The notes: generated by a model from the letters alone, not told the origin. A stretch of DNA of 64,000 bases from Minisyncoccota bacterium (GCA_041661645.1 JBAZUA010000004.1:69067-133066), one strand, 5' to 3'; counted from the stretch's first letter, positions 11,493 to 41,014 are shown. Translations and numbers: made by a program.

Positions 11493-11581
11493 GGAGACGT
11501 GTCAGAGTGGTCTAACGTGCATCTTTGCTAAAGATGTGTACCCTTTATACGGTACCGAGGGTTCGAATCCCTCCGTCTCCG
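11493..11581 (+). tRNA. tRNA-Ser (GCU anticodon, long variable arm)
   Basis: Acceptor GGAGACG/CGTCTCC. Anticodon stem CATCT/AGATG with loop TTGCTAA (anticodon GCT). Long extra arm GTGTACCCTTTATACGGTAC. T-arm GAGGG-TTCGAAT-CCCTC. Discriminator G. Confidence 0.9.
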
Positions 11582-11819: not shown

Positions 11820-13058
11820 ATGAAGAAAATCTTCAGAGAGTACCATCAATTTACGGATAAGGAGTTTCAAAAAATATGGAAAGAAGGGCTTTTTGTGTTT
11901 GATACAAACACTCTTTTGAACATGTATCGCTATAGTCGCAAGACGGTTGATGCATATTTTGATGTGCTAAAAGGGCTGAAGAAGAGCAGTCAGCTTTGGA
12001 TTCCACATCAGGTTGGTTTTGAATTCTATGAGAATAGAATTAATGTTATATCTGAATATGAAAAGTCGTATGATGAGATGCAGTCGATTCTTAATAAGGC
12101 AAAGACAGATATCGAATCTAGGTACAAGGATCATCCCTTTCTTAATCTTTCTGACATAAAGAAAGATATGGATAGTGGGCTTTCGGCGGTTGAGTTGAAG
12201 CTTAAAAAAGCAAAAGCCGACCATCCTAAATGGCTCGAGGAGGATGATGTTCTTACGAAGCTGAACGAACTATTTGACGGGAGTGTCGGTACTGGTTATA
12301 CGGAAGAGAGGCTTTGTGAAATAAAGAAGGAGGGGAAGGAGAGGTATGAAAAAAAGACCCCGCCTGGTTTTAAAGATGATAAAAAATCTGAGGATAAAAA
12401 ATATGGTGATCTGATATTGTGGTATCAGATAATCGAGAACGCTAAACAGGCAAAGAAACCTGTAATTTTGGTTTCTGGTGACGTTAAGGAAGATTGGTGG
12501 CTTGAAAAAGATGGTAAAAAACTTATGCCTTTACCCCAGCTTAAGAAGGAGCTTTTTGATAAAGCTGGAGTTTCTTTTCACATATATACCTCGGACAGGT
12601 TCTTGGAGCTTTCAGGAACAAAAGAAAAGAAAATTGATGATAGTACCATTAAAGAGGTTAGGAAAATTCGAGAGCTTGAAGAAAAGAGAATGATGTCTCG
12701 ACGATCAGAACTTCCCGAAAAAGAGTATTATTCCAGAAGCCCGTATCGCCACGTTTCAGAGTTTGTCTCCATTATCCCTTTGTTGGAAGAAATCATCCTC
12801 ATCTTGAGGAGTGTGGACATTCCTCCTCCTTACCGGAGTGATCTTGAACAGTCGATGCAGAATTTGTTAGAAACGCGTCACAGGATGGCGCATGGGGAAG
12901 TTGATAAGTTGGGTTTATATCGCTTAGGTCGAGAGGTGTCTTTTGTCGTGGGTCGTTTCTTGGCCCTTGGACTCGTCGATCCCGAGCCTTCTGCGAAACT
13001 GAAGGAGTTGCTCGATCGCGTAGAGTACTCTAATCATAGAATGCAGAGATATCTTTAG
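11820..13058 (+). CDS. PIN-like nuclease domain protein with C-terminal HEPN-like Rx4H motif
   Basis: N-terminal GLFVFDTNTLLNMYRY (PIN first Asp), later acidic positions (FEFYEN, ILWYQIIEN, VSGDVKEDWW). C-terminal RHRMAHGE matches HEPN Rx4-6H. 412 aa, lysine-rich, low GC. Confidence 0.6.
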   Translation: MKKIFREYHQFTDKEFQKIWKEGLFVFDTNTLLNMYRYSRKTVDAYFDVLKGLKKSSQLWIPHQVGFEFYENRINVISEYEKSYDEMQSILNKAKTDIESRYKDHPFLNLSDIKKDMDSGLSAVELKLKKAKADHPKWLEEDDVLTKLNELFDGSVGTGYTEERLCEIKKEGKERYEKKTPPGFKDDKKSEDKKYGDLILWYQIIENAKQAKKPVILVSGDVKEDWWLEKDGKKLMPLPQLKKELFDKAGVSFHIYTSDRFLELSGTKEKKIDDSTIKEVRKIRELEEKRMMSRRSELPEKEYYSRSPYRHVSEFVSIIPLLEEIILILRSVDIPPPYRSDLEQSMQNLLETRHRMAHGEVDKLGLYRLGREVSFVVGRFLALGLVDPEPSAKLKELLDRVEYSNHRMQRYL

Positions 13059-13061
13059 TGT

Positions 13062-13538
13062 ATGAGTAAAAATATCACCTTCGCCCGTAATCTTGTAAAA
13101 GGAAAGATAGCAGAAACAATTTTTGCGCAGATGTTGCGTGAGGTTGGCAATTTCACAGTTCTTGAGTTTGGATATGAAAAAATCATTCCTGAACTTATAC
13201 AGACCGAATACGATACAAATAAGGAAACGTTGGAGATTTTAAGAACTGCTCCTGATTTCGCTGTTATCAACAAGAAAGAGAAGGGGGTTAGACTTGTTGA
13301 GGTTAAGTATCTCCATCGGATTAATACTGAGTATGTCTACCGTTATGCCCATAGAATGGCAGAGTCTTGGAACCCTTCTTTTCTCTTTGTGGCCACTCAA
13401 GAGGGTTTCTTTTATGACGAGGTTCGTACGATTGTAGAAAACAAGGGTGTCATAGCGCCTCTTGATGATTCACAGATTCCAAAGACCATCCAAGAGGAAT
13501 ATTTGAAGATACTGAAGGATTTTGAGGCTAATAATTAA
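13062..13538 (+). CDS. small PD-(D/E)xK nuclease-fold protein (putative)
   Basis: E...PDFAV-x12-VRLVEVKY arrangement (D...ExK) in a 158 aa protein. 3-nt gap to upstream gene and 3-nt gap to downstream gene suggest an operon. Confidence 0.5.
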   Translation: MSKNITFARNLVKGKIAETIFAQMLREVGNFTVLEFGYEKIIPELIQTEYDTNKETLEILRTAPDFAVINKKEKGVRLVEVKYLHRINTEYVYRYAHRMAESWNPSFLFVATQEGFFYDEVRTIVENKGVIAPLDDSQIPKTIQEEYLKILKDFEANN

Positions 13539-13541
13539 ACC

Positions 13542-14333
13542 ATGTCTCAATTATCACAAATCATAAAATCTCTCGAAAATAACGTATCTGTAGATGCTGT
13601 TTTACTCGTCGGTTCACAGAGTAAAAATGAGCACAAGGAATACAGTGATATCGATCTTGTTGTCATCCTTAAGGAAAAGGCATCAGATTTACAATCACTC
13701 TTTCAGTATGTTGATGGCAAGCCATGTGACATCTTTTTCTTTGACGGGGCAATGTTGCAATTATTCCTAGGAGCTAAAACTATCCCTGCAAATAAGATGG
13801 ATGCGGTTTTGCTTGGCTGGCTCGACACAGCACACGTATATTTTGATAAATCAGGTGTCGTAAAGTCTCTCATGGGCAATAAGGAGAGTCTCAAGGCAAA
13901 GCTCGAAGTGCCTGTAGAGGAGATGGTTTCTTTTGAATCGAAGATTAATGCTGGCTATATTACGAACAAGAGATATTTTGATTCAGCTAATCCTGAATAT
14001 CATGATGCGCTTGAGACAAAGCTTCTTCAGGATGTATACAACATACTTATTGGTTATTTTGAATTTAGAGCAATACCGTGGAGAGGGGAGAAAACAATGC
14101 TTCGACATCTAAAGGAACACGACAAAGCTTTTTATGATCTATATATGTCATATATACGAGCTACAACTCTCAAGGAAAAATTTAAACTCTATGAACAACT
14201 GGTGTCATTGGTATTCTATGGAGAGTATCGTTTGTGGGACAGAGAGGCCGTAAGACCATACACAAATCGACCTCTTAAAAAAGAAGAACAGGCTCACCTT
14301 GTTGGATATTGGAATGGACTGATTAAGTCTTAA
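13542..14333 (+). CDS. Pol-beta-superfamily nucleotidyltransferase (ANT/Lnu-like or minimal NTase)
   Basis: LLVGSQSKNEHKEYSDIDLVVIL matches the hG[GS]x9-13Dh[DE]h NTase motif. About 150 aa C-terminal helical domain. 263 aa. Confidence 0.7.
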   Translation: MSQLSQIIKSLENNVSVDAVLLVGSQSKNEHKEYSDIDLVVILKEKASDLQSLFQYVDGKPCDIFFFDGAMLQLFLGAKTIPANKMDAVLLGWLDTAHVYFDKSGVVKSLMGNKESLKAKLEVPVEEMVSFESKINAGYITNKRYFDSANPEYHDALETKLLQDVYNILIGYFEFRAIPWRGEKTMLRHLKEHDKAFYDLYMSYIRATTLKEKFKLYEQLVSLVFYGEYRLWDREAVRPYTNRPLKKEEQAHLVGYWNGLIKS

Positions 14334-19449: not shown

Positions 19450-22400
19450 GTGAATTCACTCGCCAAAACCTTCAGGCCGATCATCTTTGGTTTTATTTTG
19501 GTCTCTGGCCTTTTCCTCTCCTCGCACCAGGTCGCGTTCGCGGATGTCTTGTTTCCAGGCAACATAAGTTCTTGTGGAGAACTAGCCGTTACGGGAACGT
19601 ATACTCTCACATCTGACGTCACGGCCTCGCCTGGGCAGGCCTGCTTCACGGTTTCTTCCAATGATGTGACTTTGGATGGTTTCGGATTCACTGTCTTTGG
19701 CGGCAGCGCTTGGGCAATAGATGCCAGGGCATATGACAACGATCGCGTCACCCTCACGAATGGTGCAAACGCATACACGAACCTTATCGTTAACAACATT
19801 GTCTTATCTGGATTCACTGGGGGAGTGAATATAAGTGGAAACACTGATACGAATGGATCGGGTGCGAATGCTGGTTACGGAGGTGCGGGAGGGGATGTTG
19901 CGGTGTTCTACTCGCCGTCGCTCGGCGTGACGGCGAATGGCGGGAACACCTCAACCTATGGGTACGGAGGCGTCGGAGGAAACATCTCCTTCACCGACGA
20001 GAACCTCAACATCTCGACGAGCAATATCTCCGCTCTCGGCGGTACCGGCACGACGGGTCGCAACACCGATGGGGGACTCACTCTTTCATATACTGGGACT
20101 TTTGCACATTCAAATGTCACCCTGAGCACTCTTTCATATCTTAACGAGAACCTAACCTCATTCGGAACATATGTTGGTGGTACCTATCCGATTGTTCCTG
20201 GCACCGTCTCTTCTTGTGGAACTCTCGCAGGGTCGGGAACTTATACTCTTGCTCAGGATATTACAAATATCTCTGGTACTTGTTTTACTCTTAACTCAAA
20301 CGACGTCTTAATTAATGGAGCAGGTTATTCGATCATCGCAGCACCATCGAATACATCTTTCGCCGTACGAGCAGGAAGCTTCTCTGGCCTCACTATCGCA
20401 TCGACGACTGTTACAGACTTTTCAAACCTAGTTATCTCAAGCTCGACAGTGACCATCTCAGGAAACAATCTTGATCTTTCAAATCAATTTATTGCCGCTG
20501 GATCTCTTACTCTTTCATATACAGGGTCATTGACGAAGACGGGTGCGACAGCCACAGCTTTTAGCGCGCTTACGGTGAATGGTACAAGTTATGGGGCACA
20601 GGCTGCGGGAGTTTTGATGGATTGGGTGGTAAGGGAACAGAGCAGGGGCTGGCGGGGCATCACCTCCTCCGCCGACGGCACGAGGCTTGTCGCGGGTGTC
20701 TATGGCGGCCAGATCTACACATCCGCCGACTCCGGCGCCACCTGGACCGCCCGCGACTCGGCCAGGAACTGGTACTCCGTCACGTCCTCCGCCGACGGAA
20801 CCAGGCTTGCCGCCGTGGTTTTAAGCGGCCAGATCTACACCTCGACAGATTCCGGAGTCACCTGGGCGGCCCGCGACTCGGTCAGGAACTGGTACTCCGT
20901 CACGTCCTCCGCCGACGGCACAAAACTCGCGGCGGTAGTCTCTGGCGGACAGATCTACACCTCGACCAATTCCGGCGCCACATGGAGCGCCCGAGATTCA
21001 AACAGGAGCTGGCAATCTGTCGCCTCCTCCGCCGACGGCACAAAACTCGCGGCGACGGTGAATGGCGGCCAGATCTACACCTCGACAGATTCCGGAGTCA
21101 CCTGGGCGGCCCGCGACTCGGTCAGGAACTGGTACTCCGTCACGTCCTCCGCCGACGGCACAAAACTCGCGGCGGTTGTTTACGGCGGACAGATCTACAC
21201 TTCCACCGATTCTGGTGTCACCTGGACCGCCCGCGACTCGGTCAGGAGCTGGCGATCTGTCGCCTCCTCCGCCGACGGCACGAGGCTTGTCGCGGGTGTC
21301 TATGGTGGCCAGATCTACACATCCACCGACTCCGGCGCCACATGGAGCGCCCGCGACTCGGCCAGGAACTGGTACTCCGTCACCTCCTCCGCCGACGGAA
21401 CCAGGCTTGCCGCCGTGGTTTTAAGCGGCCAGATCTACGCCCACCAGGATGACCCTGCTTCATTCGCTGTGGATATTCTTGTGCCTGTTTCAAGTTCAAC
21501 TGTATCTACCTGGTCTCCAATTGTCTCTTGGGGCACCGCCACATCCTGTTACTACTCGTATAATAATTTTACTTCAACTTCTACGGCAAACTGTGCATTG
21601 AACGGTTCTGATATTTCAAATCCAGGATACGGAGATCGTACATTATATGTGAAAGGCATTGATGCTAATGGGACAATCATTCAGAAAAGCTCTACCTATT
21701 ATTTAGGGCTTCCAATTACACCTATATATCCAATCGCGGGAACCACAGCCACATCTTCAGTTTTTTCTGTTAATTGGGATCCCACAAACGCAGGAAACAT
21801 CACTTCCTGTTATTACTCCTACGACGACTTCATCTCGACTTCGACCGCAAACTGTGCTTCGGAGGGTTCTGACATCTCTGTTCCTGTAGATGGTTCGGCG
21901 ACTCTGTATCTAAAAGCAGTTGATTCAAATGGATTGATAGGTAATTCGAATACTTCATTCATTTATCCTTTTTATTTTGCCCGCGACTCGAACAGGAGCT
22001 GGCTTTCCATCACCTCTTCTTCCGACGGGACCAGGCTCGCCGCGGTTGTTACTAACGGACAAATCTATACGTCCACCGACTCAGGTTCCACATGGACCGC
22101 TCGGGAGTCTAATAGGAACTGGCGTGGCATCACTTCTTCCGCCGACGGAACCAAGCTCGCCGCGTTTGTTCAGAATGGTCAGATTTACACTTCCACCGAT
22201 TCTGGTGTCACCTGGACCGCCCGCGACTCGAACAGGACGTGGTATGGTATCACTTCTTCCGCCGATGGAACCAAGCTTGCCGCTATTGTGAGTGGTGGAG
22301 GCCAGATTTACACTTCCACCGATTCTGGTGTCACCTGGACCGCCCGCGACTCGAATAGGAGCTGGTATTCTGTCACCTCCTCATCCGACGGCACCAAGCT

Positions 22401-25400
22401 CGCCGCGGTTGTGAGTGGTGGTCAAATCTACTCCTCGACCGACAGTGGTGTCACTTGGACTGCTCGTGATTCGAATAGGAGCTGGTTCTCTATAACTTCT
22501 TCCGCCGATGGTACGAAGCTTGCCGCGGTTGTTTACGGTGGTCAGATTTACACCTCCACAAACTCCGGGGTCACCTGGACCGCCCGCGACTCGAATAGGA
22601 CGTGGTATGACATCACTTCTTCCGCCGATGGTACGAAGCTCGCTGTGGTTGTTAACAGCGGACAGATTTACACTTCCACCGATTCTGGTGTCACCTGGAC
22701 TGCCAGGGACTCGAGCAGGAACTGGCTCTCGATTACCTCCTCCGCTGACGGCACAAAGCTTGCTTCGGTTGTTGGTGGTGGCCAAATATATACCCATCAA
22801 GATATCAACCCTTCTTTAAAGGTTGACCTGATTACACCTTCTTCTGGCGCGACACTCAGTTCCTGGTCTCCAACTGTTTCCTGGGGCACCGCCACATCTT
22901 GCTACTACTCATATGACAATTTCACCTCTACCTCCACAGCCAATTGTGCGTTGGGTGGTTCTGATGTTTCTAATCCAGGACTTGGATCAAAGACCCTATC
23001 CCTAAGAGGTATAGATTTAAATGGAACCATTGTTCAGAAAGATACAACTTTCTCTTTTGGTGTTCCGTCCGCTACTAATCCGACAGACTCCGCTGTCCTT
23101 ACTTTGTGGAACCCATCTATCAACTGGGATCCTGCCTCTCTGGGAAATATTTCGAGTTGCTATTATTCGTACGATAACTTTATTTCGACATCAACCGTAG
23201 ATTGTCTGGGAACGGGTTCTGATATTTTCTCTCCGACGGTTGACGGAACATCGACTCTTTCCTTGAAGGTTTCCGATTCAAATGGGAATATCGGCACCAC
23301 CAGCATTGCCTTCAGCTTCCTTTTCAGCTGGACGTCTCATGGCCCGTCAGCCGATTGGAACGGTCTCGCCGCTTCTTCGGATGGGATGAAGCTTATTGCT
23401 GCTCCTTGGGGCGGTAATTTGCAAACGTCATCCGATGGTGGCCTTACCTGGGTGGACAGGGGCAACAACAATTTGTGGACACAAGCCGCGTCTTCGGCTG
23501 ACGGTACAAAGTTGCTCGTCGGTGCCTGGACCGGCAGGTTGCAGATGTCTACGACATCGGGGGCCACATGGTTCCTGACGGGTCCCAGTGCGAACTTCTA
23601 TTCGGCTGTCGCGGCCTCTGCCGACGGAACGGTTTTGGCCACCAGCATTTACAATGCAGGTTCCCGAATATATGTATCAACAGATAGCGGCACAAATTGG
23701 GTTGCTCGCGGACCGGTTCTTGCGACGGGGTGGAATGATCTCACTATTTCTTCGAATGGGGCAAAGATGGCCGCTGTCCCTCAGGGCTCAAATCAGATTT
23801 ATACCTCCACCGACTACGGCGTCACCTGGACCGCCCGTGATTCAAATAGGAGTTGGTCCGCTATTAGATCATCGGCTGATGGTGTCAAGCTCATTGCCTT
23901 CGCGGGAAGTCAGATATACGTGTCTTCAGACTCAGGGATCACTTGGACTGCACGGGGACCTAGCAAGACATGGTCGTTTGTCGCCATATCGGGAGACGGG
24001 AGCAAGCTCGCAGCTACCGTCAACAGTAACGGTCAGGTGTGGACATCAAACGACTTTGGCTTGACTTGGACCGCTCGAGAATCAGCGAGGGCGTGGAAGG
24101 AAGTCGTCTTTTCAAACGATGGGTCCAGACTTGCTGTGGCTGTAAGTAATGCTCAGATATACACCTTCAACTCAAATCCCTCCGCTCTTTCCATTTCCCG
24201 GCCAGTGTTTGGGGAAAGTGTTCTTTATAAAAACTGGTCACCCCTCGTGAACTGGAGTACATCGGTATCCTGTTATTATTCTTACAACAACTTCAGTTCC
24301 ACTTCTACCGCATCATGTCTCAACGTTGGGTCTGATATCCTTCCTCCTTCAAGCCAAGGTGTTCAGACTTTATATGTTCGTGGCATAGACGGATCTGGGG
24401 TCATAACGACTGTGAATACGACGTTTGATTTTGACTTTATCTTAACTGCTCGCGATTCAACTAGGAATTGGGTTTCCATCACATCTTCCTCCGACGGCAC
24501 CAAGCTCGCCGCCGTTGTCAACAATGGTCAGATATACACCTCCACGAACTCCGGCGTAAACTGGACCGCCCGCGACTCGAATAGGAGCTGGCGTTCTGTC
24601 ACATCCTCATCCGACGGCACCAAGCTCGTCGCCGTTGTCAACAGTGGTCAGATATACACCTCCACGAACTCCGGCGTAAACTGGACCGCCCGCAACTCAA
24701 ATAAGAATTGGTGGTCTGTCACCTCCTCATCCGACGGCACCAAGCTCGCCGCGGTGGTGAATGGCGGACAGATATACACCTCGACTGACTCAGGTGTCAC
24801 CTGGACCGCCCGCGACTCGAACAGGAGCTGGTATTCTGTCACCTCCTCATCCGACGGCACCAAGCTAGCCGCGGTGGTGAGCGGCGGCCAGATATACACC
24901 TCCACGAACTCCGGCGTAAACTGGACCGCCCGCGACTCGAACAGGACGTGGAATGGTATCACATCTTCCTCCGACGGAACCAAGCTCGCCGCGGTGGTGA
25001 ATGGCGGCCAGATATACACCTCCACGAACTCCGGCGTAAACTGGACCGCCCGCGACTCGAACAGGACGTGGTACGGTATCACTTCTTCCGCCGACGGAAC
25101 CAAGCTCGCCGCCGTTGTCAACAATAGTCAGATATACACCTCGACTGACTCAGGTGTCACCTGGACCGCCCGCGACTCGAATAAGAGTTGGTGGTCTGTT
25201 GTCTCGTCCTCTGACGGTGCAAAGTTGTTCGGAGTCGTTCTGAACGGTCAGATTTACACCTCGGCCCTTTTACCAACAGTCACGTCACCTGCGGCCGGTG
25301 CAACCGTAAACTCTTGGGCACCGGTCGTTTCTTGGGACAGATCATCTTCTTGTCAGTACTCATATGACAATACGAACTGGACCACAGCTTCCTGCACGGG

Positions 25401-28400
25401 TACGGGATCAGAGATAGCCGTCCCTTCATCGATAGGTTCTTTGGTTCTATACATACAAGGAACTGATTTTCTGGGAACTGTCGCTACCTCAAGCTCTTCA
25501 TTCACCTATCTGCCCTTACTCACATCATCCGTCAGTGGTTGTGGGGCGATAGCTTCTTCCGGCACATATACGCTCTCAGGTGACATATCGGGAGTGACGG
25601 GCACCTGTTTCGTGGTCAGTGCCAATAACGTAACTATTAATGGGGCGGGGCATTCGATAACCGCGGCTGGAGGAAACACGAGCTACGCTATTTCTGCCGG
25701 GAATTCATCAAACCTTGTTCTTCAGGACATTTCAATCTCAGGATTCGGTGGTGGACTCGTCAATTCGTATTCAAGCGTTTCCTACACCGGCACCGACGTA
25801 ACCTTCTCTACAACCACAGCAAGCACACTCTCGGTCATTTATACAGGTACCCTTAACGCGATTGAAACCACCGTCTCAAATCTTTTGAGTTTTGTAATAA
25901 ACTCAGTTGATCTCCAGTCGTTTGTTGCTGGACTATTCTCTTGGTCTCAACAGAGCATATCTTCTTGCGGCGCCCTCTCGAGCTCAGGCGTCTACACCCT
26001 CACTCAGGATATATCAAACGTGTCGGGAACCTGTTTCACCATAGGTGCGCGAGCGGTGATCATTGATGGAGATGGTCACACGATCACGGGGGCGAATGGC
26101 AATACTGACTTTGCGTTTGTCGCAACCTCGACAAACGCAAATGCTTACTCGAACATTGCGGTCAAGAATCTCACGCTCGTTGGCTTTAGTGGTGGTGTCG
26201 ACGCGCGCGGCGCCGATGGGGTCACGGGTGATGTATCAGGCAAGCTCGGTGGCAATGTCTCTCTTTACAGCGTAACGTTTCCTACAAGCACGATATCCGT
26301 TGACGCTTCCGGCGGAGATGGCTTCTACGAAAACAACACGACGGCCGAAGGTGGATACGCGGGCGATGTTAAGGCTGTTGATTCGACCCTTGGCGCCGTT
26401 ATCATGAACGGCGGTGATACGAATGGAGACTTGGCTATTGGAAGCAATAATGGGGCTGTTGGTGGGGGAACCCCAGGTTCTCTTTCAAGCATCAATTCAA
26501 CAATAACCCTTACGACGGCAAATTACGGAGGGGCGTATACGCCTGGTTGCATGGACAATTCGTTTACTAATTACGATTCGTCCGCGACATATGACGATGG
26601 AACCTGTACCAACCTTACGATTGGGACGGAGATAGGCAATCCCGCGAACAGCACCATCTCGGGACCGATAGCCTTCTGGGGCTTCTCGAACTCGGGAGTA
26701 ATAGAAGGGGATGCCGAGTATCATGGCATGGATCAATTCTTCGGTAGTTATTATGGTTACGACACTCTTGGAAATATTGGGACAACGACAGGATTTGCCA
26801 ACTTCGTAGATGATTATAATTATGGTGGCGGACCAAACAACTATGGATATGTTGGGGGAGGGGCGAATTTCACCTATTACACAAGTAATTACGGTACGAT
26901 TGATGGTGCCACCATCTTCCAATACGGAAGTAATAACGGAATTATAAATGGCAGCGCCGACTTTACCCAGAACGGAAGTTATGCGGGTTATAACTACGGC
27001 ACAGTGAATGGTGATGCGACGTTTTTTGGTTCCCCGAACGGTTTCGGTACCTACAATTATGGTACTGTGACGGGAACCACGTATTATTACTACGGATGCG
27101 CTAATCCTACGGCCTATAATTATGAGTCTACTGCTTTAAATGACGATGGATTCTCCTGTCAGTATGTCGGTTCGAATCTGGATAACCCTTCTGGTAACAC
27201 TGTCCTCGGACCAATCTATTTCTACGGCCTCTCGAACTTCGGCACCGTGACTGGTGACGCATTCTTCTATTCCGGTGGTGCAAACCAGCCCGACGGAATT
27301 GTCACGGGCAACGCCGACTTCACGAACGGCGGCAGCGATCAGGGCTTCAATTACGGCACCGTTCAAGGTGATGCGACGTTTCAGCATAGTCCTGATGATT
27401 ACTATGGCTACCCTAGCTTTAACCAGGGAACCGTATCGGGAAGCACCTACTATTACTATGGATGCATGGATCCAAACGCGTCAAATTACAATGCGGGTGT
27501 TCTGAACGATGACGCGACTTGCCTCTACTTTGGATCAAACGCTGATCTTCCTGCTGGGAGGACTGCGACCGGACCAATTACCTTTACCGGTGGTTATTCA
27601 AACTACGGCACGGTGAACGGCGACGCGACGTTCGATGTCGGCAGCTATAACTTCGGCACCACGACGGGTGCTGCGACATTCAATGAGTTTACTTCGAATG
27701 CCGGAGTGTTGAGCATTGACGGAAGCTTTACCTTCAATGGTACGGGTATTGTTGGTGGGACGATATATGACGTCAATGCCGCGCCGATAGTTTCGTTCGA
27801 GTTCAGCAACGGCTCCGTGAACTCCTATACGGTGACGGGTGGCAGTACTTTCGACGATGGGACATATAACATCGGCGAGGTTGTTGGCACCGCCACGTTT
27901 GCTGGTTCTTCATACAATGAAGGCACGGTGACTGGTGACGCCCTGCTCAATGACGGCTCATTCAATCTGGGTTCCGTCTCGGGTGATGCCTTTTTCAACA
28001 CCACCTACTACGCTTCCACCACGCCATCGGGCGGCATATTCTCCCTCGAGAACGCTCCTTGGCAGGGAAGCATTGGCGGTGTCGTGTACGGTTCGGACAG
28101 CAATCCCATAACAGAGTATAGATTCTACGGAGGGAACTTCAATTCCAGCACGATACTGGGTAACGCGGTCTTCAATTCATCCTCGTATAATAGCGGCATA
28201 GTGACAGGAAATGTCCTGTTGAACGATACGGGTTATAACGTGCGTACCGTAAACGGAGACCTCACCCTCAACACCACCTACTACGCTTCCACCACGCCGT
28301 CCAATGGCTTGATGGTCATTGCGGACAACACCTGGCAGGGAAGTGTCGGGGGAACCATATATGGTTCAGATAATCTCCCGATCACGAACTTCAGTTTCAT

Positions 28401-29703
28401 CGGCTCTCGAAACAATGCAACGACCATCACGGGCACCGTCTCCTTCTCCGACTCCGCGTACAACGCCGGCACCATAAACGGCACCGCAGCCTTCGGCAAC
28501 AATCGGCCGTTCCGAATGGGCACCATAAACGGTACCTCGACCCTCATGGGAACGAATCAGACCATCACTGGCTCGAATTCTGTTACGATTTTGACCAAGC
28601 AGCTCGGTAGGGACACCCTCTATCTCGGCGCGGGCGCGACCCTCGCTGTCGGTAGTGTCTTCATTGGGGGCGTTGATGGCAACAATCTCCTCACAATCCG
28701 ATCGAACACGCCGGGCAGCTATGCCTCGATCAACATATCTGGCGACACCTCAGGACTCAATTTCATCCGTCTCAAGGACATACACAATACGGGAACGACC
28801 ATAGACTTCAGGGGGAGGACGGTCTATGACGATGGGGGAAATACGGGCTTCATTTTCAACCCAAGCTCACAGCCGGGCCAGCACACCTTCGTGCCCCCAT
28901 CGACGCATATCGTGACCCCGACCGAGAGGGCGGCCACGGCGGCACAGGCTGCCGCCATCGCACGTGCGACCGCCGCCGCCCTGGCAGCACTGCGTTCTAA
29001 CTCGGGCACCGTGAGTGCCGCGCTGCAGGAGTTCCGCCGTGCGACGGCGACGACGCTCCCGACACTTTCCCTGCCCACACTCGCCGTTGGCAGGCTCCCG
29101 ACCCTCGTCTCGCTCCCGACCTTCGGCGGCACGGGCGCCAAGTCATTCTCCTTTGCTGACTCGATAGCGAAATTCCTCTTCGCGCCTCTGCCCGATTCGA
29201 TACAGGCCTCCCTTGGCAGCGCCCCGCGCCTGAAGGCCTACTTTGACTCGATCGGCATCACCACCTCCCAGTCTCTCGTCAGGATATCGACGTCCCCAAT
29301 GACTGTTCCCGCGCTGGATGCGGCGGTGCCTGGCATATACTCGGTGTCAAAGGACGGGAAGGACGTGAGGACCCAGCTCTCCTCGGACGGCAAGGTCACG
29401 CTCCTTCAGTATGTCCAGGCAAAGCCGGGCGACAGGCTCCTAGTGTCCATCGTTCCGACGGACGATGCCAGGGTGACGGCGACCTTTGACGGGAAACCCC
29501 TCTCGTTTGGCGCCTCGAACTCGGCCTTCGTCATTGCCCCTAACAAGGCAGGATCCTATGTCCTGAAGTCATCGGCTTCGCCGATATCCCTCGTGGTGAG
29601 GGTTGTCCCTACGTCCAATGTGACGGTCGTTCCAACTAATGGCGGGGAGGTAAAGCCTAGTGGGTCACTCTGGCACAAGGTACTTAGCTTCTTCGGCTTC
29701 TGA
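19450..29703 (+). CDS. giant secreted surface protein (3417 aa) with beta-helix-like modules, four 7-bladed Asp-box/BNR beta-propellers and a conserved C-terminal domain
   Basis: GTG start, signal peptide FGFILVSGLFLSSHQVAFA. Four blocks of 7 repeats of about 40 aa containing S-x-D-S-G-x-T-W (20640-21440, 21980-22790, 23340-24170 degenerate, 24460-25260). Recurring CYYSYDNF...C modules. N-terminal SSCGxL..GTYTL...CF module present 4 times. C-terminus ...SLWHKVLSFFGF. Confidence 0.9.
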   Translation: MNSLAKTFRPIIFGFILVSGLFLSSHQVAFADVLFPGNISSCGELAVTGTYTLTSDVTASPGQACFTVSSNDVTLDGFGFTVFGGSAWAIDARAYDNDRVTLTNGANAYTNLIVNNIVLSGFTGGVNISGNTDTNGSGANAGYGGAGGDVAVFYSPSLGVTANGGNTSTYGYGGVGGNISFTDENLNISTSNISALGGTGTTGRNTDGGLTLSYTGTFAHSNVTLSTLSYLNENLTSFGTYVGGTYPIVPGTVSSCGTLAGSGTYTLAQDITNISGTCFTLNSNDVLINGAGYSIIAAPSNTSFAVRAGSFSGLTIASTTVTDFSNLVISSSTVTISGNNLDLSNQFIAAGSLTLSYTGSLTKTGATATAFSALTVNGTSYGAQAAGVLMDWVVREQSRGWRGITSSADGTRLVAGVYGGQIYTSADSGATWTARDSARNWYSVTSSADGTRLAAVVLSGQIYTSTDSGVTWAARDSVRNWYSVTSSADGTKLAAVVSGGQIYTSTNSGATWSARDSNRSWQSVASSADGTKLAATVNGGQIYTSTDSGVTWAARDSVRNWYSVTSSADGTKLAAVVYGGQIYTSTDSGVTWTARDSVRSWRSVASSADGTRLVAGVYGGQIYTSTDSGATWSARDSARNWYSVTSSADGTRLAAVVLSGQIYAHQDDPASFAVDILVPVSSSTVSTWSPIVSWGTATSCYYSYNNFTSTSTANCALNGSDISNPGYGDRTLYVKGIDANGTIIQKSSTYYLGLPITPIYPIAGTTATSSVFSVNWDPTNAGNITSCYYSYDDFISTSTANCASEGSDISVPVDGSATLYLKAVDSNGLIGNSNTSFIYPFYFARDSNRSWLSITSSSDGTRLAAVVTNGQIYTSTDSGSTWTARESNRNWRGITSSADGTKLAAFVQNGQIYTSTDSGVTWTARDSNRTWYGITSSADGTKLAAIVSGGGQIYTSTDSGVTWTARDSNRSWYSVTSSSDGTKLAAVVSGGQIYSSTDSGVTWTARDSNRSWFSITSSADGTKLAAVVYGGQIYTSTNSGVTWTARDSNRTWYDITSSADGTKLAVVVNSGQIYTSTDSGVTWTARDSSRNWLSITSSADGTKLASVVGGGQIYTHQDINPSLKVDLITPSSGATLSSWSPTVSWGTATSCYYSYDNFTSTSTANCALGGSDVSNPGLGSKTLSLRGIDLNGTIVQKDTTFSFGVPSATNPTDSAVLTLWNPSINWDPASLGNISSCYYSYDNFISTSTVDCLGTGSDIFSPTVDGTSTLSLKVSDSNGNIGTTSIAFSFLFSWTSHGPSADWNGLAASSDGMKLIAAPWGGNLQTSSDGGLTWVDRGNNNLWTQAASSADGTKLLVGAWTGRLQMSTTSGATWFLTGPSANFYSAVAASADGTVLATSIYNAGSRIYVSTDSGTNWVARGPVLATGWNDLTISSNGAKMAAVPQGSNQIYTSTDYGVTWTARDSNRSWSAIRSSADGVKLIAFAGSQIYVSSDSGITWTARGPSKTWSFVAISGDGSKLAATVNSNGQVWTSNDFGLTWTARESARAWKEVVFSNDGSRLAVAVSNAQIYTFNSNPSALSISRPVFGESVLYKNWSPLVNWSTSVSCYYSYNNFSSTSTASCLNVGSDILPPSSQGVQTLYVRGIDGSGVITTVNTTFDFDFILTARDSTRNWVSITSSSDGTKLAAVVNNGQIYTSTNSGVNWTARDSNRSWRSVTSSSDGTKLVAVVNSGQIYTSTNSGVNWTARNSNKNWWSVTSSSDGTKLAAVVNGGQIYTSTDSGVTWTARDSNRSWYSVTSSSDGTKLAAVVSGGQIYTSTNSGVNWTARDSNRTWNGITSSSDGTKLAAVVNGGQIYTSTNSGVNWTARDSNRTWYGITSSADGTKLAAVVNNSQIYTSTDSGVTWTARDSNKSWWSVVSSSDGAKLFGVVLNGQIYTSALLPTVTSPAAGATVNSWAPVVSWDRSSSCQYSYDNTNWTTASCTGTGSEIAVPSSIGSLVLYIQGTDFLGTVATSSSSFTYLPLLTSSVSGCGAIASSGTYTLSGDISGVTGTCFVVSANNVTINGAGHSITAAGGNTSYAISAGNSSNLVLQDISISGFGGGLVNSYSSVSYTGTDVTFSTTTASTLSVIYTGTLNAIETTVSNLLSFVINSVDLQSFVAGLFSWSQQSISSCGALSSSGVYTLTQDISNVSGTCFTIGARAVIIDGDGHTITGANGNTDFAFVATSTNANAYSNIAVKNLTLVGFSGGVDARGADGVTGDVSGKLGGNVSLYSVTFPTSTISVDASGGDGFYENNTTAEGGYAGDVKAVDSTLGAVIMNGGDTNGDLAIGSNNGAVGGGTPGSLSSINSTITLTTANYGGAYTPGCMDNSFTNYDSSATYDDGTCTNLTIGTEIGNPANSTISGPIAFWGFSNSGVIEGDAEYHGMDQFFGSYYGYDTLGNIGTTTGFANFVDDYNYGGGPNNYGYVGGGANFTYYTSNYGTIDGATIFQYGSNNGIINGSADFTQNGSYAGYNYGTVNGDATFFGSPNGFGTYNYGTVTGTTYYYYGCANPTAYNYESTALNDDGFSCQYVGSNLDNPSGNTVLGPIYFYGLSNFGTVTGDAFFYSGGANQPDGIVTGNADFTNGGSDQGFNYGTVQGDATFQHSPDDYYGYPSFNQGTVSGSTYYYYGCMDPNASNYNAGVLNDDATCLYFGSNADLPAGRTATGPITFTGGYSNYGTVNGDATFDVGSYNFGTTTGAATFNEFTSNAGVLSIDGSFTFNGTGIVGGTIYDVNAAPIVSFEFSNGSVNSYTVTGGSTFDDGTYNIGEVVGTATFAGSSYNEGTVTGDALLNDGSFNLGSVSGDAFFNTTYYASTTPSGGIFSLENAPWQGSIGGVVYGSDSNPITEYRFYGGNFNSSTILGNAVFNSSSYNSGIVTGNVLLNDTGYNVRTVNGDLTLNTTYYASTTPSNGLMVIADNTWQGSVGGTIYGSDNLPITNFSFIGSRNNATTITGTVSFSDSAYNAGTINGTAAFGNNRPFRMGTINGTSTLMGTNQTITGSNSVTILTKQLGRDTLYLGAGATLAVGSVFIGGVDGNNLLTIRSNTPGSYASINISGDTSGLNFIRLKDIHNTGTTIDFRGRTVYDDGGNTGFIFNPSSQPGQHTFVPPSTHIVTPTERAATAAQAAAIARATAAALAALRSNSGTVSAALQEFRRATATTLPTLSLPTLAVGRLPTLVSLPTFGGTGAKSFSFADSIAKFLFAPLPDSIQASLGSAPRLKAYFDSIGITTSQSLVRISTSPMTVPALDAAVPGIYSVSKDGKDVRTQLSSDGKVTLLQYVQAKPGDRLLVSIVPTDDARVTATFDGKPLSFGASNSAFVIAPNKAGSYVLKSSASPISLVVRVVPTSNVTVVPTNGGEVKPSGSLWHKVLSFFGF
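20640..21440 (+). repeat. tandem 120-bp coding repeats (first propeller), including perfectly identical copies >100 bp
   Basis: 20827-20936 equals 21067-21176; 20761-20830 approximately equals 21361-21430; 20641-20760 approximately equals 21241-21360. Confidence 0.85.
21980..22790 (+). repeat. tandem 120-bp coding repeats (second propeller)
   Basis: Seven W..ITSS(A/S)DGTKLAAVV..GQIY(T/S)STDSG(V/S)TWTARDSNR units. Confidence 0.85.
24460..25260 (+). repeat. tandem 120-bp coding repeats (fourth propeller)
   Basis: Seven units; tccacgaactccggcgtaaactggaccgcccgc recurs 4 times. Confidence 0.85.
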
Positions 29704-30143: not shown

Positions 30144-31031
30144 ATGACCAACAACTATCTCGATCTCAGCAACAAGCCAGCCCCGCGCATCATCGAGCGC
30201 GTGGTGTTTAAGAGGCGCTCATGGCATGTCGAGTTGGCCAAGGTCGCCCTCGGCATAGTGGTTGCCACTGGGGTGGTGTATGCCGTATCAAAGGCGGATG
30301 AAAACCTCTCCAGCAAGAGCTTCTCGGCGATCGGCGTCATTTCGAGCATGAGCGGCGAGAGTCTCTCCATTGAAAAGGCGAATGGGTCTGACGGCGGCAA
30401 GGGAATCTCTTATTCCTTCGCTACGGCATCCATATCAAAGCTCGAGACGAGCGACTATTCGCCTATCAACCTCTCTGACCTCAGGGTGGGGGACAGGGTC
30501 ATCGTGCAAGGCACGGATTCCCTGGGCGGTCTCACCGCCACCCGAATCATCTCCTTCTCGTCCCTGACGAGTTCCGCCGTCGTTCTCGACGTTGCCACAT
30601 CGACCGCAACGTTGGTAGCGACCTCAACAGCCTCATCAACCATTTCCGGGGGAATAAGCATCGAGGTTGCGACCTCTACCGTAATATCGACCGCGACGAC
30701 AACCGAGGACGTCATAATCGCCTCATCGACCGTCGCGATTGCCACATCTACCGCGACCTCCACGACGCCTTCCTCATCTGGTTCCGAGGTCATCGAAGTC
30801 ATAGATGTTGCCACATCATCAGCGAGCACCACTGATGCCGTTGCGACGGACGTATCGAGCACGACGGATTCCGTCATCTCGACATCGACGTCCCCATCAT
30901 CTGTGGCGGAACCAGAAAGTCAGCCGGCGAGCGATGTCATTGTTCCGGTCTTGACCGAACCTGTTCCTGATGTGATCCCGACTCCTGATTCATCATCGAC
31001 TTCCTCTGATCCTGCCGCAGCCACCGAATAG
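30144..31031 (+). CDS. membrane-anchored protein with long Ser/Thr/Ala-rich tail; paralog of the 29716 gene
   Basis: TM VALGIVVATGVVYAV; SFSAIGVISS...LRVGDRVIVQGTDS core. About 150 aa of low-complexity ATSTATLVATSTASS... Confidence 0.55.
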   Translation: MTNNYLDLSNKPAPRIIERVVFKRRSWHVELAKVALGIVVATGVVYAVSKADENLSSKSFSAIGVISSMSGESLSIEKANGSDGGKGISYSFATASISKLETSDYSPINLSDLRVGDRVIVQGTDSLGGLTATRIISFSSLTSSAVVLDVATSTATLVATSTASSTISGGISIEVATSTVISTATTTEDVIIASSTVAIATSTATSTTPSSSGSEVIEVIDVATSSASTTDAVATDVSSTTDSVISTSTSPSSVAEPESQPASDVIVPVLTEPVPDVIPTPDSSSTSSDPAAATE

Positions 31032-31066: not shown

Positions 31067-34000
31067 GTGGTGAAATCGCCTGTGAAAACCTTTTGCCATA
31101 TCTCTATCTGGTCACTCCTGACCATTGGTTTCTTCCTAGGCTCGCATTCCATCGCTTCTGCCGCCGTTCTTCTCCCTGGCACCATAGATACCTGTGGAGA
31201 GCTTGCCGCTTCAGGGACATACACCTTGGGCTCGAGTTTTGCGGCGAGCACGACTCTCGATGCGAACGGCACCTGTTTTGTGGTTGACGCATATCAGATC
31301 GGCGGGGGTACGGTGACCATCGATGGAAATGGCCATACCATCGATGGTGAGATGATTGGAAGCGGGCTTGGGGTTGATGCTCGCGCATACAATATCGCAG
31401 GAGACACTACGAGCGGTCTCGTCAACGGAGGGTCTCCGTCCCTTACGGCTCTCGTCATTCAAAATATCACTTTTACTGGATTTAACGATGGAGTGAATGC
31501 GAGTGGAAATGCTGACGGGGGCACTTGTAGCGTGCCCGGTGGAAATGGCGGGAATATAACCATCTCAAACGCCACGACAACCATCATAACCTCTAACGGA
31601 GGAGATGAGACAAGTTCCTGTAATCCTGTTGGTTTCGGCGGTGCGATCACGATAATATCTTCAAACACAAGCGGTTTACAATCCATATCTGGTGTCGGTG
31701 GCGGTTCTGGTGTAGGTGGGGCCATATCTATTAGCGCAAGTTCAACGGTGACGGGTTCGGTATCATCTAATAGCGGCGGTTATTCCCAGTCTGGTTCAGC
31801 GGGAGATATTAGCGGCGGACCTATTTCTATTACTACCGGCTCTGTCGTGATAGGTAATGTGTCATCAAGCGCCCTTGGGTCCGATGGTGACGGAGGGCCT
31901 ATTTCCATTACCACGGGATCCATGGTGACGGGCGACATATCGGCCGACGGTTCACAAGGCAACTCCGGTGAGGCTGGTCAAATCGATATAACCGATTCTT
32001 CCGTGAGTGGATCTCTGACGTCTAATGGCGGCTCAGGAGCAGTTTGTTATTCTGGTGGAACGATAAACATTACGGATTCTTCGCTTGTTGGGGGTATCAC
32101 ATCTAATGGCGGTGGTTCTGGCGGAGGTGGCTGCTCGGGTGGATCGATTACTATTTCAAACTCACCAATCACGGGAGGTGTAAGTGTTGGTGGAGGAGGT
32201 GGTGCTTCTGGCACTACAGGAGGCCCCGGAGGGAACATTTCAATCTCCGGGACAAACTTGGATCTTTCTGGAGAGACAATCAGCGCTCCTGGAGGGGTGA
32301 TTAATGATGGAGGGACAACTGGGGCAGACGGCACCCTGACCCTCACGTATACTGGTTCTCTGGTCACGACGGGCGTGACACTGTCGGCATTTTCCGCCTT
32401 TACCATAAACGCCCCATCCTCGGTTACCTATGGCCCGGTAGTGTTTGCGGGCGGGGAATTTCCACTTCTTCCGGGAGGAACGGCGGCATCGGCGGCACAG
32501 TGCAGCTCTCTTCTATTTGCTGGTACATATTACGTCCAGAGCTTCACCGGGGATTGTCTGATATCTGTTAGCGGAATAACCCTAGACGGGTCGGGAACAG
32601 AGACGATCACGGGAAATGTGACTGGAGCCAACGGTGCTGATCAGGTCGTTGATGGTAATAACAATGAGGTTAGCGCAAATACCCCAGGCGTCGGCGTGAG
32701 CGTTTCCAATCTTACGGTCACTGGTTCGGTGGCTGGTGGCAATGGTGGTAATGCGGTGTATGGGGCAAGCGCCTCCCCTGGTGGTTTGGTCAGTGTCGTC
32801 AATTCGACCGTTGGCACCGTAACATCTGGAAACGGCGGAGGCAGCGGTACCTATTATGGAGGACATGCCGGCAGTGTCACCGTCACGGGTTCTGTGACGG
32901 GAGCTGTTACGTCAGGCTCTGGCGGTTATGGAAACGATCAAATATCCTTCGAGGGAAGTGCGGGCAACGGGGGTGGCATTACAATCACAACCTCAACCTC
33001 AACCTCTGTCTCGTCGGGTGCGGGAGGTTATTCGACAGGGGCGTCCTGTGGTTTGGGTGGAAGTATCGCTGTCCAAGGGGGTACCAGTATTACAGGGGGC
33101 GTGACTTCTGGAGACGGTGGATCGAATAGCTTCGGTGGATCGCCCGGATGTTCAAACGGCGCCATCTCAATCACCTCTAATTCAAGGATCGGTGGTGCCG
33201 TGACGGCCAGCAATGGCTCCAGCGGTTTTGGTGGCGATATTTCCGTCACGGCAAGCTCCACCGTTGTGGGTACGATAACTTCAAATGGTAGCAATGATAA
33301 CGGTGCGTGTTATGCGCCCGGAGGTTACGGGGGAGCCGTCACGGTCTTGAATTCGGTGACAGCAGGCATCGTTTCTAATGGAGGAATCGAATCCAGCGGC
33401 TGTGGTTACTCCGGGCTCGGTGGAACTGTTTATATCCTAAATTCCCAGACGGGAACGGTCACATCAAACGGCGGAGCCGGGTTTTTCTCTGGTAATGGCG
33501 GATCTGTTTCCGTCACCAATTCCCAGACGGGAACGGTCACGTCAAATGGTGGTGATGGCATAGTAGAGGTGTCTGGCGATGGCGGTTCTGGCGGAACTGT
33601 CTCGATTGCCACAAACTCCACTGTCACGGGCGCTGTATCGGCTAATGGTGGTGAAGGTCTTTCTGGTCAAAGTAATGGTGGAACTGTCTCGATCACCGCG
33701 AACTCAATCGTGACTGGGGCCGTTTCGGCCAACGGGGCCTCTAGTTTTCTTGGTGGCAACAGTTATGACTCTGGCGGTTATGGTGGGCCGATTACCATAA
33801 CCAATTCACAGGCGGGAAGCGTGTCCTCCATGGGAGGACACGGTCTTGGCGTTGCGGGTGGTCGAGGCGGCACGATCACGATTTCAGTCACAAGCCTTGA
33901 TCTTTCGGATAGGACAATAAATGTGTCTGGTGGGACTGGCGACGCGGGTTTTGGCGCGAACGGCTCCTTTGTCATCAATTATCAATCTCTATCCACCAAT

Positions 34001-37000: not shown

Positions 37001-37219
37001 CTCTCGTCGGGGATGTTTGCACGCAAGCCTCTCCAATTCGATGTCGATGGCTCCGCGGCCCTTCGGGCCCCAGCCCTTCCGGGCACCTATTTCCTGACCT
37101 CCTCGTCATCGCCGCTCTCCCTCGCGGTGCAGGTGGGGGTATCCGCCATTTCAGCCCTTCCCGAAGCCAAGCCCCCGTCGATTTGGCAGAGGGTGTGGGG
37201 CTGGTTTGGCTTTCGTTAG
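31067..37219 (+). CDS. giant secreted surface protein (2050 aa) with Gly-rich beta-helix-like repeats, a six-or-more-bladed repeat domain and the same conserved C-terminal domain
   Basis: GTG start, signal peptide. N-terminal DTCGELAASGTYTL...CFVVD module homologous to the first giant protein. Long GGxGG/NGG-rich repeats. 6-7 repeats of about 38 aa W.SI(A/T)STPSGDVYAVV.GGDIYKQTGGTGSF (34650-35340). C-terminal VNAAVQEFRRATATTLPTLSLPTL... ending WGWFGFR. Confidence 0.9.
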   Translation: MVKSPVKTFCHISIWSLLTIGFFLGSHSIASAAVLLPGTIDTCGELAASGTYTLGSSFAASTTLDANGTCFVVDAYQIGGGTVTIDGNGHTIDGEMIGSGLGVDARAYNIAGDTTSGLVNGGSPSLTALVIQNITFTGFNDGVNASGNADGGTCSVPGGNGGNITISNATTTIITSNGGDETSSCNPVGFGGAITIISSNTSGLQSISGVGGGSGVGGAISISASSTVTGSVSSNSGGYSQSGSAGDISGGPISITTGSVVIGNVSSSALGSDGDGGPISITTGSMVTGDISADGSQGNSGEAGQIDITDSSVSGSLTSNGGSGAVCYSGGTINITDSSLVGGITSNGGGSGGGGCSGGSITISNSPITGGVSVGGGGGASGTTGGPGGNISISGTNLDLSGETISAPGGVINDGGTTGADGTLTLTYTGSLVTTGVTLSAFSAFTINAPSSVTYGPVVFAGGEFPLLPGGTAASAAQCSSLLFAGTYYVQSFTGDCLISVSGITLDGSGTETITGNVTGANGADQVVDGNNNEVSANTPGVGVSVSNLTVTGSVAGGNGGNAVYGASASPGGLVSVVNSTVGTVTSGNGGGSGTYYGGHAGSVTVTGSVTGAVTSGSGGYGNDQISFEGSAGNGGGITITTSTSTSVSSGAGGYSTGASCGLGGSIAVQGGTSITGGVTSGDGGSNSFGGSPGCSNGAISITSNSRIGGAVTASNGSSGFGGDISVTASSTVVGTITSNGSNDNGACYAPGGYGGAVTVLNSVTAGIVSNGGIESSGCGYSGLGGTVYILNSQTGTVTSNGGAGFFSGNGGSVSVTNSQTGTVTSNGGDGIVEVSGDGGSGGTVSIATNSTVTGAVSANGGEGLSGQSNGGTVSITANSIVTGAVSANGASSFLGGNSYDSGGYGGPITITNSQAGSVSSMGGHGLGVAGGRGGTITISVTSLDLSDRTINVSGGTGDAGFGANGSFVINYQSLSTNVSTFLYDIGTLTVNGSAVSDSSATTCTNEVVAGAGCAWNGVFDPVIYYFFDGVTVLQPSAASDGDWNNPNNWYTTGSYLTTSDGADQPGVIPQAVNSVIINSSVTTNSGSSAAVSSVIVNGTSTINIPISTLGVTFNNGGSNTGTIANTGVTIFNGTSTNSGITISSGMVTFNASSSNTGTIFTDATTTFNGDDASSTGSVFDTGIFITQNVGNRSWRSIASTPSGDVYAVVPGGYIYKQTGGTGSFVNVSSALGTKGWSSITSTPSGDVYAVTNGGDIYKQTGGTGSFTAQVAGNRGWYSITSTPSGDVYAVVYPGGDIYKQTGGTGSFAAQGVGNKSWYSIASTPSGDVYAVVNGGDIYKQTGGTGSFVNVSSALGTKGWFSITSTPSGDVYAVVNGGDIYRQIGGTGSFVARGAGNKDWGAITSTPSGNVYVVIYAGGDIYKSIPDGTSTPITRIFSSAVATVRDFTTEAGHNNWIVVAQGVVVDLTNAVYNVATNIFKAFAGGWFIPNPTINGGAHVVPLISVSTSTLAYTGASDTKTIKWKPVIDWDTATTCLYSYDDFVTTSVVTCSASDTTLPRPTAGPHTLSLRGTDANGGMAEASLTYYYDNTSPLGIDSSDATLPLDEVTRPYYYLSSDISFPLTFAVSAELRGSAATTVISTTGGYTTSGAIDAQGYNLVLRNITVGGAITSNGFSSGASGGSISIYNANTASITANGAAGTNGGAGGVVTIATSTTAAVTANGANGTTNGGAGGSVTITNSIGNPLTSTVTASGGSSSSCGDGGDSGDIVLTNSSYGTLTSDAGSAATSGCPGQSHSSGTQHHAPTVTGVHSSQVVSSNSSPVVRSSTGTVNAAVQEFRRATATTLPTLSLPTLVVGRLPTLTSLPTFGGTGIRSFSFAGPIAKFLFEPLPEGLRSTLATSPVLAAYVSSKGIAGAQSLSRLVVTPIAITDPAPIGLYSVSRGGRTLSTSLSSDGLTLFQLVHVSPGAELSVSREGSSLSSGMFARKPLQFDVDGSAALRAPALPGTYFLTSSSSPLSLAVQVGVSAISALPEAKPPSIWQRVWGWFGFR

Positions 37220-39798: not shown

Positions 39799-39850
39799 CT
39801 GTGGATAGCGCTCGCCGCGGAGCGGTAGTATAATAAACAGACAAAAGAAG

Positions 39851-41013: not shown

Positions 41014-41014
41014 C

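Follow-up and report, generated by a model that had tools for sequence, protein, structure and literature searches.

The DNA considered here is a window of 64,000 nucleotides from a genome deposited as Minisyncoccota bacterium (GCA_041661645.1, JBAZUA010000004.1:69067-133066). It carries on its plus strand a giant open reading frame (ORF), g1, running from 19450 to 29703 (10,254 nt, 3417 aa, GTG start). With its first residue written M, the translation is an exact match to NCBI MFA6158770.1, a hypothetical protein from a metagenome-assembled genome (MAG) of Candidatus Paceibacterota; the gene is encoded on a 135,091-bp contig and its IMG label is "photosystem II stability/assembly factor-like". 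The window is chromosomal (tmRNA, tRNAs, FtsH, RecG, LigA and NrdD are present), and the named homologs of its LigA come from Paceibacterota or Taylorbacteria, at no more than 72% identity. Judged from its sequence, g1 is probably a giant, Sec-exported cell-surface protein of an uncultured Candidatus Paceibacterota bacterium, one of the Candidate Phyla Radiation (CPR) or Patescibacteria. What is such a protein made of, and why are so many of its parts alike? Within g1 lie four repeat blocks, predicted to be seven-bladed beta-propellers, each followed by one or two small cysteine-rich modules, and the blades of three of these propellers are probably kept alike by repeated gene conversion within the gene.

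Anchoring on the SSxDG motif together with a hidden Markov model (HMM) of the unit delimits four blocks of seven units of about 40 aa each. This agrees with an earlier interpretation of the DNA, made from the sequence alone (the sequence-only reading), which had described the same arrangement in the 3417-aa protein. The blocks, all on the plus strand, are P1 (20620-21447), P2 (21970-22800), P3 (23329-24174) and P4 (24439-25269). P2 has one additional Gly codon in unit 2.3, P3 is diverged and without long exact tracts, and P4 is the most homogenised, with an NSGVNW variant common to four of its units (4.1, 4.2, 4.4 and 4.5). Does every unit bear an Asp-box, as had been supposed? The seven units stand, but the box does not extend to all of them: it is present in only six units of each block. 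The pattern S-x-[DN]-x-G-x-x-W matches 23 times, with counts of 6, 6, 5 and 6 from P1 to P4, and one more, degenerate box completes the six of P3. The seventh unit of each block is truncated, ending after QIY(T/A), its third strand, and has neither Asp-box nor fourth strand. Just N-terminal of unit 1 comes a strand similar to (T)ARDSxR, namely DWVVREQSR in P1, FARDSNR in P2 and LTARDSTR in P4. A truncated seventh unit plus a strand N-terminal of the first is the arrangement expected for velcro-style closure, and each propeller appears to be closed in this way.

P1 with its adjoining cysteine module A1 was aligned with the other three cassettes of g1 and 44 homologs and then modelled with AlphaFold2. 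The mean pLDDT is 91.6, rising to 96-99 in the propeller, which has 28 strands, that is seven blades of four, and in each unit the Asp-box lies outside the strands, after strand 3 and before strand 4. Foldseek against the PDB places Ycf48 at the top (E ~2e-14, TM 0.68-0.73), along with GH74 xyloglucanases and a seven-bladed WD40 protein (5YZV, TM 0.81). The structure prediction that the sequence-only reading had proposed as a check thus came out as it anticipated, and on this model the blocks are predicted to be seven-bladed Asp-box beta-propellers. To which family do they belong? Pfam run on the entire 3417-aa protein gave almost nothing, and the segments were therefore scanned one by one. 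P1, P2 and P4 score 36.4, 28.1 and 27.5 bits against PF02012 and P3 scores 40 bits against PF15899, all above the cut-off of 27 that both share, which places them among the BNR and BNR_6 repeats. Other assignments fall short: PSII_BNR (PF14870) reaches 18.7, 25.8 and 24.1 bits against a cut-off of 27; Sortilin-Vps10 (PF15902) reaches 32.3 bits against 33 in P3, over about 65 residues only, and the Vps10 propeller is ten-bladed whereas those of g1 have seven units each; NCBIfam NF045728 (F510_1955 family glycosylhydrolase) reaches 160.9 bits against 175, a score summed over nine stretches in the four propellers. Sequence matches of the propellers in the PDB are weak (GH74, E 2e-4; Ycf48, E 0.003-0.006).

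The best structural match, Ycf48/HCF136 (2XBG, 5OJ3, 5OJP), an assembly factor of photosystem II (PSII), shares with g1 the seven-bladed Asp-box propeller at a sequence identity of 16-19%, with PF14870 below its cut-off. Ycf48 is a single lumenal protein of about 330 aa that binds the D1 peptide in phototrophs, whereas g1 has four propellers in 3417 aa and would be secreted by a non-photosynthetic CPR bacterium. A further comparison is with the homologs annotated as PF25852 or 'WD40/YVTN/BNR-like repeat-containing protein', with the consensus WxxVASSADGTKLVAxVxGGQIYTSTDSGVTWTARDSxR. Unlike the giant g1, these mostly have one propeller in 400-700 aa. P3 has more than 1134 such homologs with precomputed PF25852 and PF15902 matches, and the precomputed PF25852 (DUF6242_C) matches of the giant homologs P0124, P0132 and P0129 are weak or faint. 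One member of the family, P0056 (465 aa, JGI), has a seven-unit Asp-box propeller joined directly to an N-terminal methylation motif of prepilin type and, going by its sequence, would be a pilin displaying a propeller.

Cysteine-rich modules come after every propeller, as had been noted earlier, in six copies of about 85 aa on the plus strand: A1 (21448-21714) and B1 (21715-21969) after P1, A2 (22801-23067) and B2 (23068-23328) after P2, A3 (24175-24438) after P3 and A4 (25270-25515) after P4, that is 2, 2, 1 and 1. W22, P24, W28, C34, Y36 and C49 show little or no variation. Across 48 aligned modules the two cysteines, C34 and C49, never change, and a disulfide between them is plausible. AlphaFold2 gives an all-beta model (pLDDT 93.4), for which Foldseek finds immunoglobulin (Ig)-like, FN3-like and PKD folds (Sas6, ColH PKD, CbhA Fn3) at TM 0.55-0.64 and weak E values of 0.013-0.2. 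The segment scan gives no Pfam match for the module, and its sequence and profile matches in the PDB include none that is significant (E at least 0.048). A word-indexed search with the module recovered one relative. A profile search recovered 874 cluster representatives at E ≤1e-3 and 273 at E ≤1e-10, most of them 1000-5000 aa long with up to 16 modules each. On its predicted fold class the module is likely a beta-sandwich spacer of Ig-like type, and the family it belongs to is uncurated. The former description as an unrelated small disulfide domain is therefore kept as far as a separate domain is concerned and refined otherwise, to a sandwich of about 85 aa with two invariant cysteines and a sizeable family of its own. 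Arrays of 4-11 modules without propellers also exist, in P0123 (Taylorbacteria MBU3669036.1), P0125, P0133 and P0141; P0123, P0125 and P0141 end in GYFGPKTRAFI, a tail like that of peptidoglycan-binding domains, and the ending of P0133 differs.

The cassette of propeller and Ig-like module recurs in twelve metagenome loci and in many giant proteins. Writing U for propeller units and C for cysteine modules, the HMM parse of g1 is U7 C2 U7 C2 U7 C1 U7 C1 and that of the commonest relatives U7 C2 U7 C1 U7 C1; P0124 has the four cassettes of g1 and one more, and P0122 has eight propellers and 16 modules. Relatives have one to eight propellers with a modal count of seven units (range 2 to 9), and counts other than seven mostly reflect gapped parses or partial proteins. 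Residues 1-2020 of g1 are collinear with P0124 across all four propellers at 55% identity, so the four-propeller layout is older than the separation of the two and does not result from recent expansion. At L013, the locus of P0124, whose gene is the closest homolog, a frameshift or assembly error may split a longer giant gene after P0124. The sequence-only reading had also suggested that blade number might vary, and had proposed looking for length polymorphism in populations. Variation in blade number finds no support: seven is the modal count in relatives, and the P0129 cluster, the sole cluster examined, shows no indels among at least five full-length copies on different contigs; the P0129 gene is not homogenised, so this lack of indels says little about g1.

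How alike are the blades at the level of DNA? They had been described as near-identical 120-bp repeats. The period of 120 is found in P1, P2 and P4, where TRF delimits arrays at 20660-21438, 21979-22773 and 24479-25199. The near-identity is not: mean DNA identity between units is 80% in P1, 74% in P2, 77% in P4 and about 73% across propellers (range 72-80%), and identity at third codon positions among the units of g1 is 57%, so that the repeats as a whole are not near-identical. Within them lie exact or nearly exact tracts, all on the plus strand. The longest exact one (112 bp) equates 20825-20936 with 21065-21176 at an offset of 240, and its 100-bp flanks are 70% and 82% identical; the match between 20827-20936 and 21067-21176 reported earlier is exact and forms part of it. 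This pair is the only one above 100 bp, and not one of several as had been stated, the next exact tracts being 69, 54 and 53 bp long. Longer tracts with a few mismatches are also present. One of 176 bp (97%) equates 20663-20838 with 21263-21438 at an offset of 600, so that blades 1-2 of P1 match blades 6-7; one of 143 bp (94%) lies in P4 (24850-25112) at an offset of 120 and holds the 69-bp exact tract; and one of 83 bp (97.6%) links two propellers, 22327-22409 in P2 and 24793-24875 in P4, 2466 bp apart. Offsets in g1 thus run from 120 to 600 bp, plus the 2466 bp between propellers. Could such tracts follow from codon bias or from constraint on the protein? In a control in which the protein was kept fixed and synonymous codons were redrawn from g1's own usage, the longest exact repeat averaged about 20 bp with a maximum of 33, against 112 bp in the real gene, and exact tracts of at least 28 bp numbered about zero, against 35. 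Both sources are rejected on this ground.

The comparison with relatives points the same way. For 17 of the 18 complete regular units, against about 11% expected by chance, the nearest unit lies within g1 itself, in many cases in a different propeller. Units of P4 share 83% identity among themselves and 58% with the orthologs at the same positions in P0124; in P1 the values are 79% and 72%. P3 shows the reverse, with 24% among its own units (66-83% in the other propellers), which confirms the divergence remarked on earlier, and 44% to the P0124 orthologs. This reversed pattern is what an ordinary old propeller shows and makes P3 a negative control within the gene itself. Relatives of similar GC have their own tracts elsewhere (106 bp in the fifth propeller of L013; 65 tracts in L014, many of them between propellers), and low-GC relatives have few or none. 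A conserved position of the ~110-bp tract in orthologs was considered and rejected: the L013 tract belongs to another propeller, and its sequence register is unrelated. Own units closer than positional orthologs, mosaic tracts and diverged flanks are what concerted evolution by gene conversion predicts, and the sharp tract bounds, the paralog-over-ortholog similarity and the relatives' own tracts together argue for repeated short-tract gene conversion. The blades of P1, P2 and P4 are probably kept alike by repeated intragenic conversion of tracts of about 30-180 bp, within and between propellers, while the blade number of seven and the order of cassettes stay fixed; copy-number change appears to be selected against. 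As to the recent conversion or expansion put forward in the sequence-only reading, DNA exchange between units is borne out, and recent expansion is not, given the collinearity with P0124 at 55% and the third-position identity of 57%.

Is conversion needed, or could the propellers simply have been re-amplified recently from single blades, as in the model of Pereira and Lupas (2022, PMC9218822)? Those authors describe highly repetitive propellers in all lineages, with very similar blades as in g1, the Asp-box group making up about 5% of their set, and attribute the repetitiveness to independent, fresh amplifications of single blades; gene conversion is not mentioned. The NSGVNW variant of the four P4 units, which is lineage-specific, and the 97% identity over 176 bp between blades 1-2 and 6-7 of P1 would suit such a history. 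In g1, by contrast, the tracts form a mosaic on an old scaffold. They are out of phase with the blades and have sharp bounds inside units otherwise 70-82% identical, they occur at many offsets and also between propellers 2.5 kb apart, and third-position identity overall is just 57%. Moreover, a homolog of 55% identity has the same layout of four times seven in collinear order, down to the truncated seventh unit and the closing strand. Fresh amplification fits this mosaic, out-of-phase and inter-propeller pattern less well than conversion does, and we regard it as an unlikely source of the present likeness, possible for older events.

Outside the cassettes, g1 begins with a Sec-type signal peptide (19450-19542, plus strand, as are all parts of g1), read from the translation as a basic n-region, the hydrophobic core IIFGFILVSGLFL and a cleavage-like site VAFA|DV. 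A beta-helix-like region follows (19543-20619) with two cap motifs SSCGxLxxxGTYTLxxD...C at 19567 and 20209; the segment scan gave no Pfam match for it, and it is also present in a paralog, g2, and in homologs. After the last cassette comes a stalk-like region (25516-29007) with beta-helix caps at 25534 and 25960, a Pectate_lyase_5 match, solenoid repeats of the GTVxGDAxF type and mini-motifs of the form CxDxxxxNY...DDGxC. The cap motif, in full SSCGxLxxxGTYTLxxD(6-8)C, thus has four copies in g1, and recurs at the start of g2 and in homologs; the Pfam match Pectate_lyase_5 (PF20585) lies near copies three and four of g1 only. The mini-motif, C-x-D/N-x(3-4)-N-Y-x(5-8)-D-D-G-x-x-C, occurs three times across the solenoid, for example as GCANPTAYNYESTALNDDGFSC, at 27097-27159, near aa 2330 and near aa 2665, with a similar GTVxGDAxF run after each copy. 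The protein closes with a domain of about 230 aa (29008-29700) that is 54% identical to the C-terminus of g2 and ends in the aromatic and basic tail LWHKVLSFFGF. This domain, which has LPTL-type repeats, is shared by g1, g2 (36554-37216), P0122, P0128, P0130, P0131, P0134, P0136 and others, and its tails read LWHKVLSFFGF, KLWSWFGK or WWSKIKSFFGF; scans of genome contigs with the domain as query gave no relatives. Domain and tail might form a signal, so far unrecognised, for surface anchoring or sorting. For g1 an LPXTG anchor of the sortase type was rejected, as its LPTxx repeats lie about 190 aa before the C-terminus with no terminal transmembrane segment after them.

Directly downstream on the same strand lies g2 (31067-37219, 2050 aa), a paralogous giant ORF with the N- and C-terminal domains of g1. 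It has one cysteine module, at 35627-35842, and six propeller-like units without an Asp-box. These units (about 34640-35400, six of about 41 aa) follow WxSI(T/A)STPSGDVYAVVxGGDIYKQTGGTGSF and contain exact DNA tracts, the longest of 67 bp; the region matched no Pfam family and by its sequence may form a six-bladed propeller of another type. Between the two giants an ORF of 295 aa (30144-31031), for which no family was found, has one transmembrane-like segment and a long Ser/Thr/Ala-rich tail (ATSTATST...). A type IV pilus cluster (PilM, PilB, PilT, PilC, then small pilin-like ORFs) occupies 38668-45870, downstream of both. Upstream, at 11820-14333, GC falls to 0.40, against about 0.55 outside this stretch; the genes there encode a PIN_8 protein and a nucleotidyltransferase and adjoin a tRNA at 11493-11581, and they may form an acquired islet of toxin-antitoxin or defence type.

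What would such a protein do? Its order runs from the N-terminal beta-helix region through the four propeller and Ig-like cassettes and a beta-helix/solenoid stretch to the C-terminal domain shared with g2. The propellers would be ligand-binding heads shown along a fibre. With 21 near-identical blades, binding would probably be multivalent and lectin- or adhesin-like, directed at a repetitive host or substrate surface. Amino-acid variation in the regular units is concentrated at positions 1, 3, 4, 19, 20 and 39, which the strand pattern of the model places in the D-A and B-C connections, with the Asp-box (C-D loop) and SSxDG (A-B loop) invariant. The variable loops would therefore form the canonical top binding face, and the Asp-box face would be the invariant one. 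A surface role is further supported by the signal peptide, the Pectate_lyase_5 "adhesive domain" match, the prepilin fusion of P0056 and the shared C-terminal domain and tail. It also has company: very large proteins of Patescibacteria are reported to be targeted preferentially to the cell surface and to abound in adhesion domains (PMC13059738), epibiotic growth needs multiple adhesins and type IV pili (PMC10633639), and the giant surface and adhesin proteins of these episymbiotic CPR bacteria resemble g1 in size, signal peptide and adhesion-type domains (PMC13059738, PMC10633639). PilX2, a heptabladed-propeller protein, helps host binding in TM7x (PMC11623550), and PilX2/PilY1, as propeller-bearing pilus adhesins, are a natural comparison for g1. 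In PilX2, however, the propeller is of RCC1 type and sits on a minor pilin, whereas g1 has Asp-box propellers, a Sec signal and no pilin N-terminus.

We therefore hold, with moderate confidence, that g1 is a surface protein of seven-bladed propeller and Ig-like cassettes whose conversion-homogenised blades serve as multivalent binding heads. Several points weigh against this. The adhesin or lectin role is something we infer, and the top-face placement of the variable loops follows from general propeller topology. Linkage to the type IV pilus is not conserved at the relatives' loci L013 and L015 and is given little weight as a functional clue. In the 176-bp tract that makes blades 1-2 of P1 match blades 6-7, conversion and partial re-duplication are not fully separable. 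Finally, g1 is known from a single short-read assembly.

Might the propellers instead be catalytic, making g1 a giant enzyme that degrades cell walls or glycans, with glycoside hydrolase propellers of the GH74, sialidase or F510_1955 kind? The NF045728 score of 160.9 bits and a weak resemblance to GH74 xyloglucanases in sequence and fold lean that way, and characterised Asp-box propellers are mostly glycosidases (PMC2716378). Yet that score lies under the 175-bit cut-off and is a sum of nine stretches spread over four propellers, and the best fold match is the non-enzymatic Ycf48. The GH74 enzymes (2CN2, 5JWZ, 6P2M) do have tandem seven-bladed Asp-box propellers in one chain, but theirs are two, directly apposed, as GH74 requires, around a catalytic cleft; g1 has four, with near-identical blades, kept apart by one or two Ig-like modules. 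The local alignments to GH74 are too weak (E 2e-4) to place its catalytic residues on g1. Near-identical blades would, besides, leave no place for one asymmetric active site in P1, P2 and P4. The sub-threshold family score, the near-identical blades and the separated propellers make a hydrolase role less likely, and we consider it distinctly improbable.

Just as doubtful is a purely structural role, in which g1 would be an envelope or S-layer-like fibre and its propellers self-assembly or spacing beads and not binding heads. Its great length, the beta-helix and solenoid stretches and the Ig-like spacers would befit a fibre; the C-terminal domain and aromatic tail conserved in homologs suggest attachment to the envelope; and two tandem paralogs are found both in this window and in L014. 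Against such beads, variation clusters at loop positions typical of a binding face, cassette number varies among relatives in a way that fits recognition better than lattice proteins, and the same propeller is found on a prepilin (P0056).

The least probable explanation is an artefact: the repeat structure or its identical tracts would have arisen by collapse, expansion or chimeric joining as short metagenome reads were assembled, and a caveat on the assembly of such repeats is also raised in PMC9218822. This explanation can point to the presence of g1 in one assembly only, to a second contig of the same organism (P0167) that begins inside the g2 repeats and to an overlapping 499-aa ORF after P0124 at the contig end of L013 (17520-19019), which suggests a frameshift. 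It is hard to reconcile with a frame open for 10.2 kb, seven units in every propeller as in the modal count of independently assembled relatives, collinearity with P0124 through four propellers and a longest exact repeat of 112 bp, which should be shorter than typical reads and the top assembler k-mer. The hazard of assembly collapse foreseen in the sequence-only reading is not supported as a major one.

Gene conversion might even be used and not merely tolerated, an idea we offer as speculation with long odds against it. A change in the binding loop of one blade could spread to up to 21 blades in three propellers and shift their specificity jointly in an arms race with the host, with the non-converting P3 keeping a fixed function. 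Propeller and Ig-like cysteine module would then be a host-recognition cassette of Paceibacteria whose copy number, from 1 to 8, tunes avidity or reach.

Some of this was known already: the folds are familiar and g1 was deposited as a hypothetical protein. With its function inferred, the practical value is modest. What is new is the recurrent propeller and Ig-like cassette in giant proteins of Paceibacteria and a clear conversion signature that comes with an internal control. Repetitiveness kept up by short-tract conversion on an old scaffold, with P3 as the control, makes g1 a well-controlled case, and one that bears on the question of amplification versus conversion for repetitive propellers. 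Few studies have dealt with the class of giant surface proteins to which g1 probably belongs. How CPR/Patescibacteria recognise and attach to their hosts is largely unknown beyond Saccharibacteria, and the cassette of propeller and Ig-like cysteine module supplies concrete candidates for host-binding studies.

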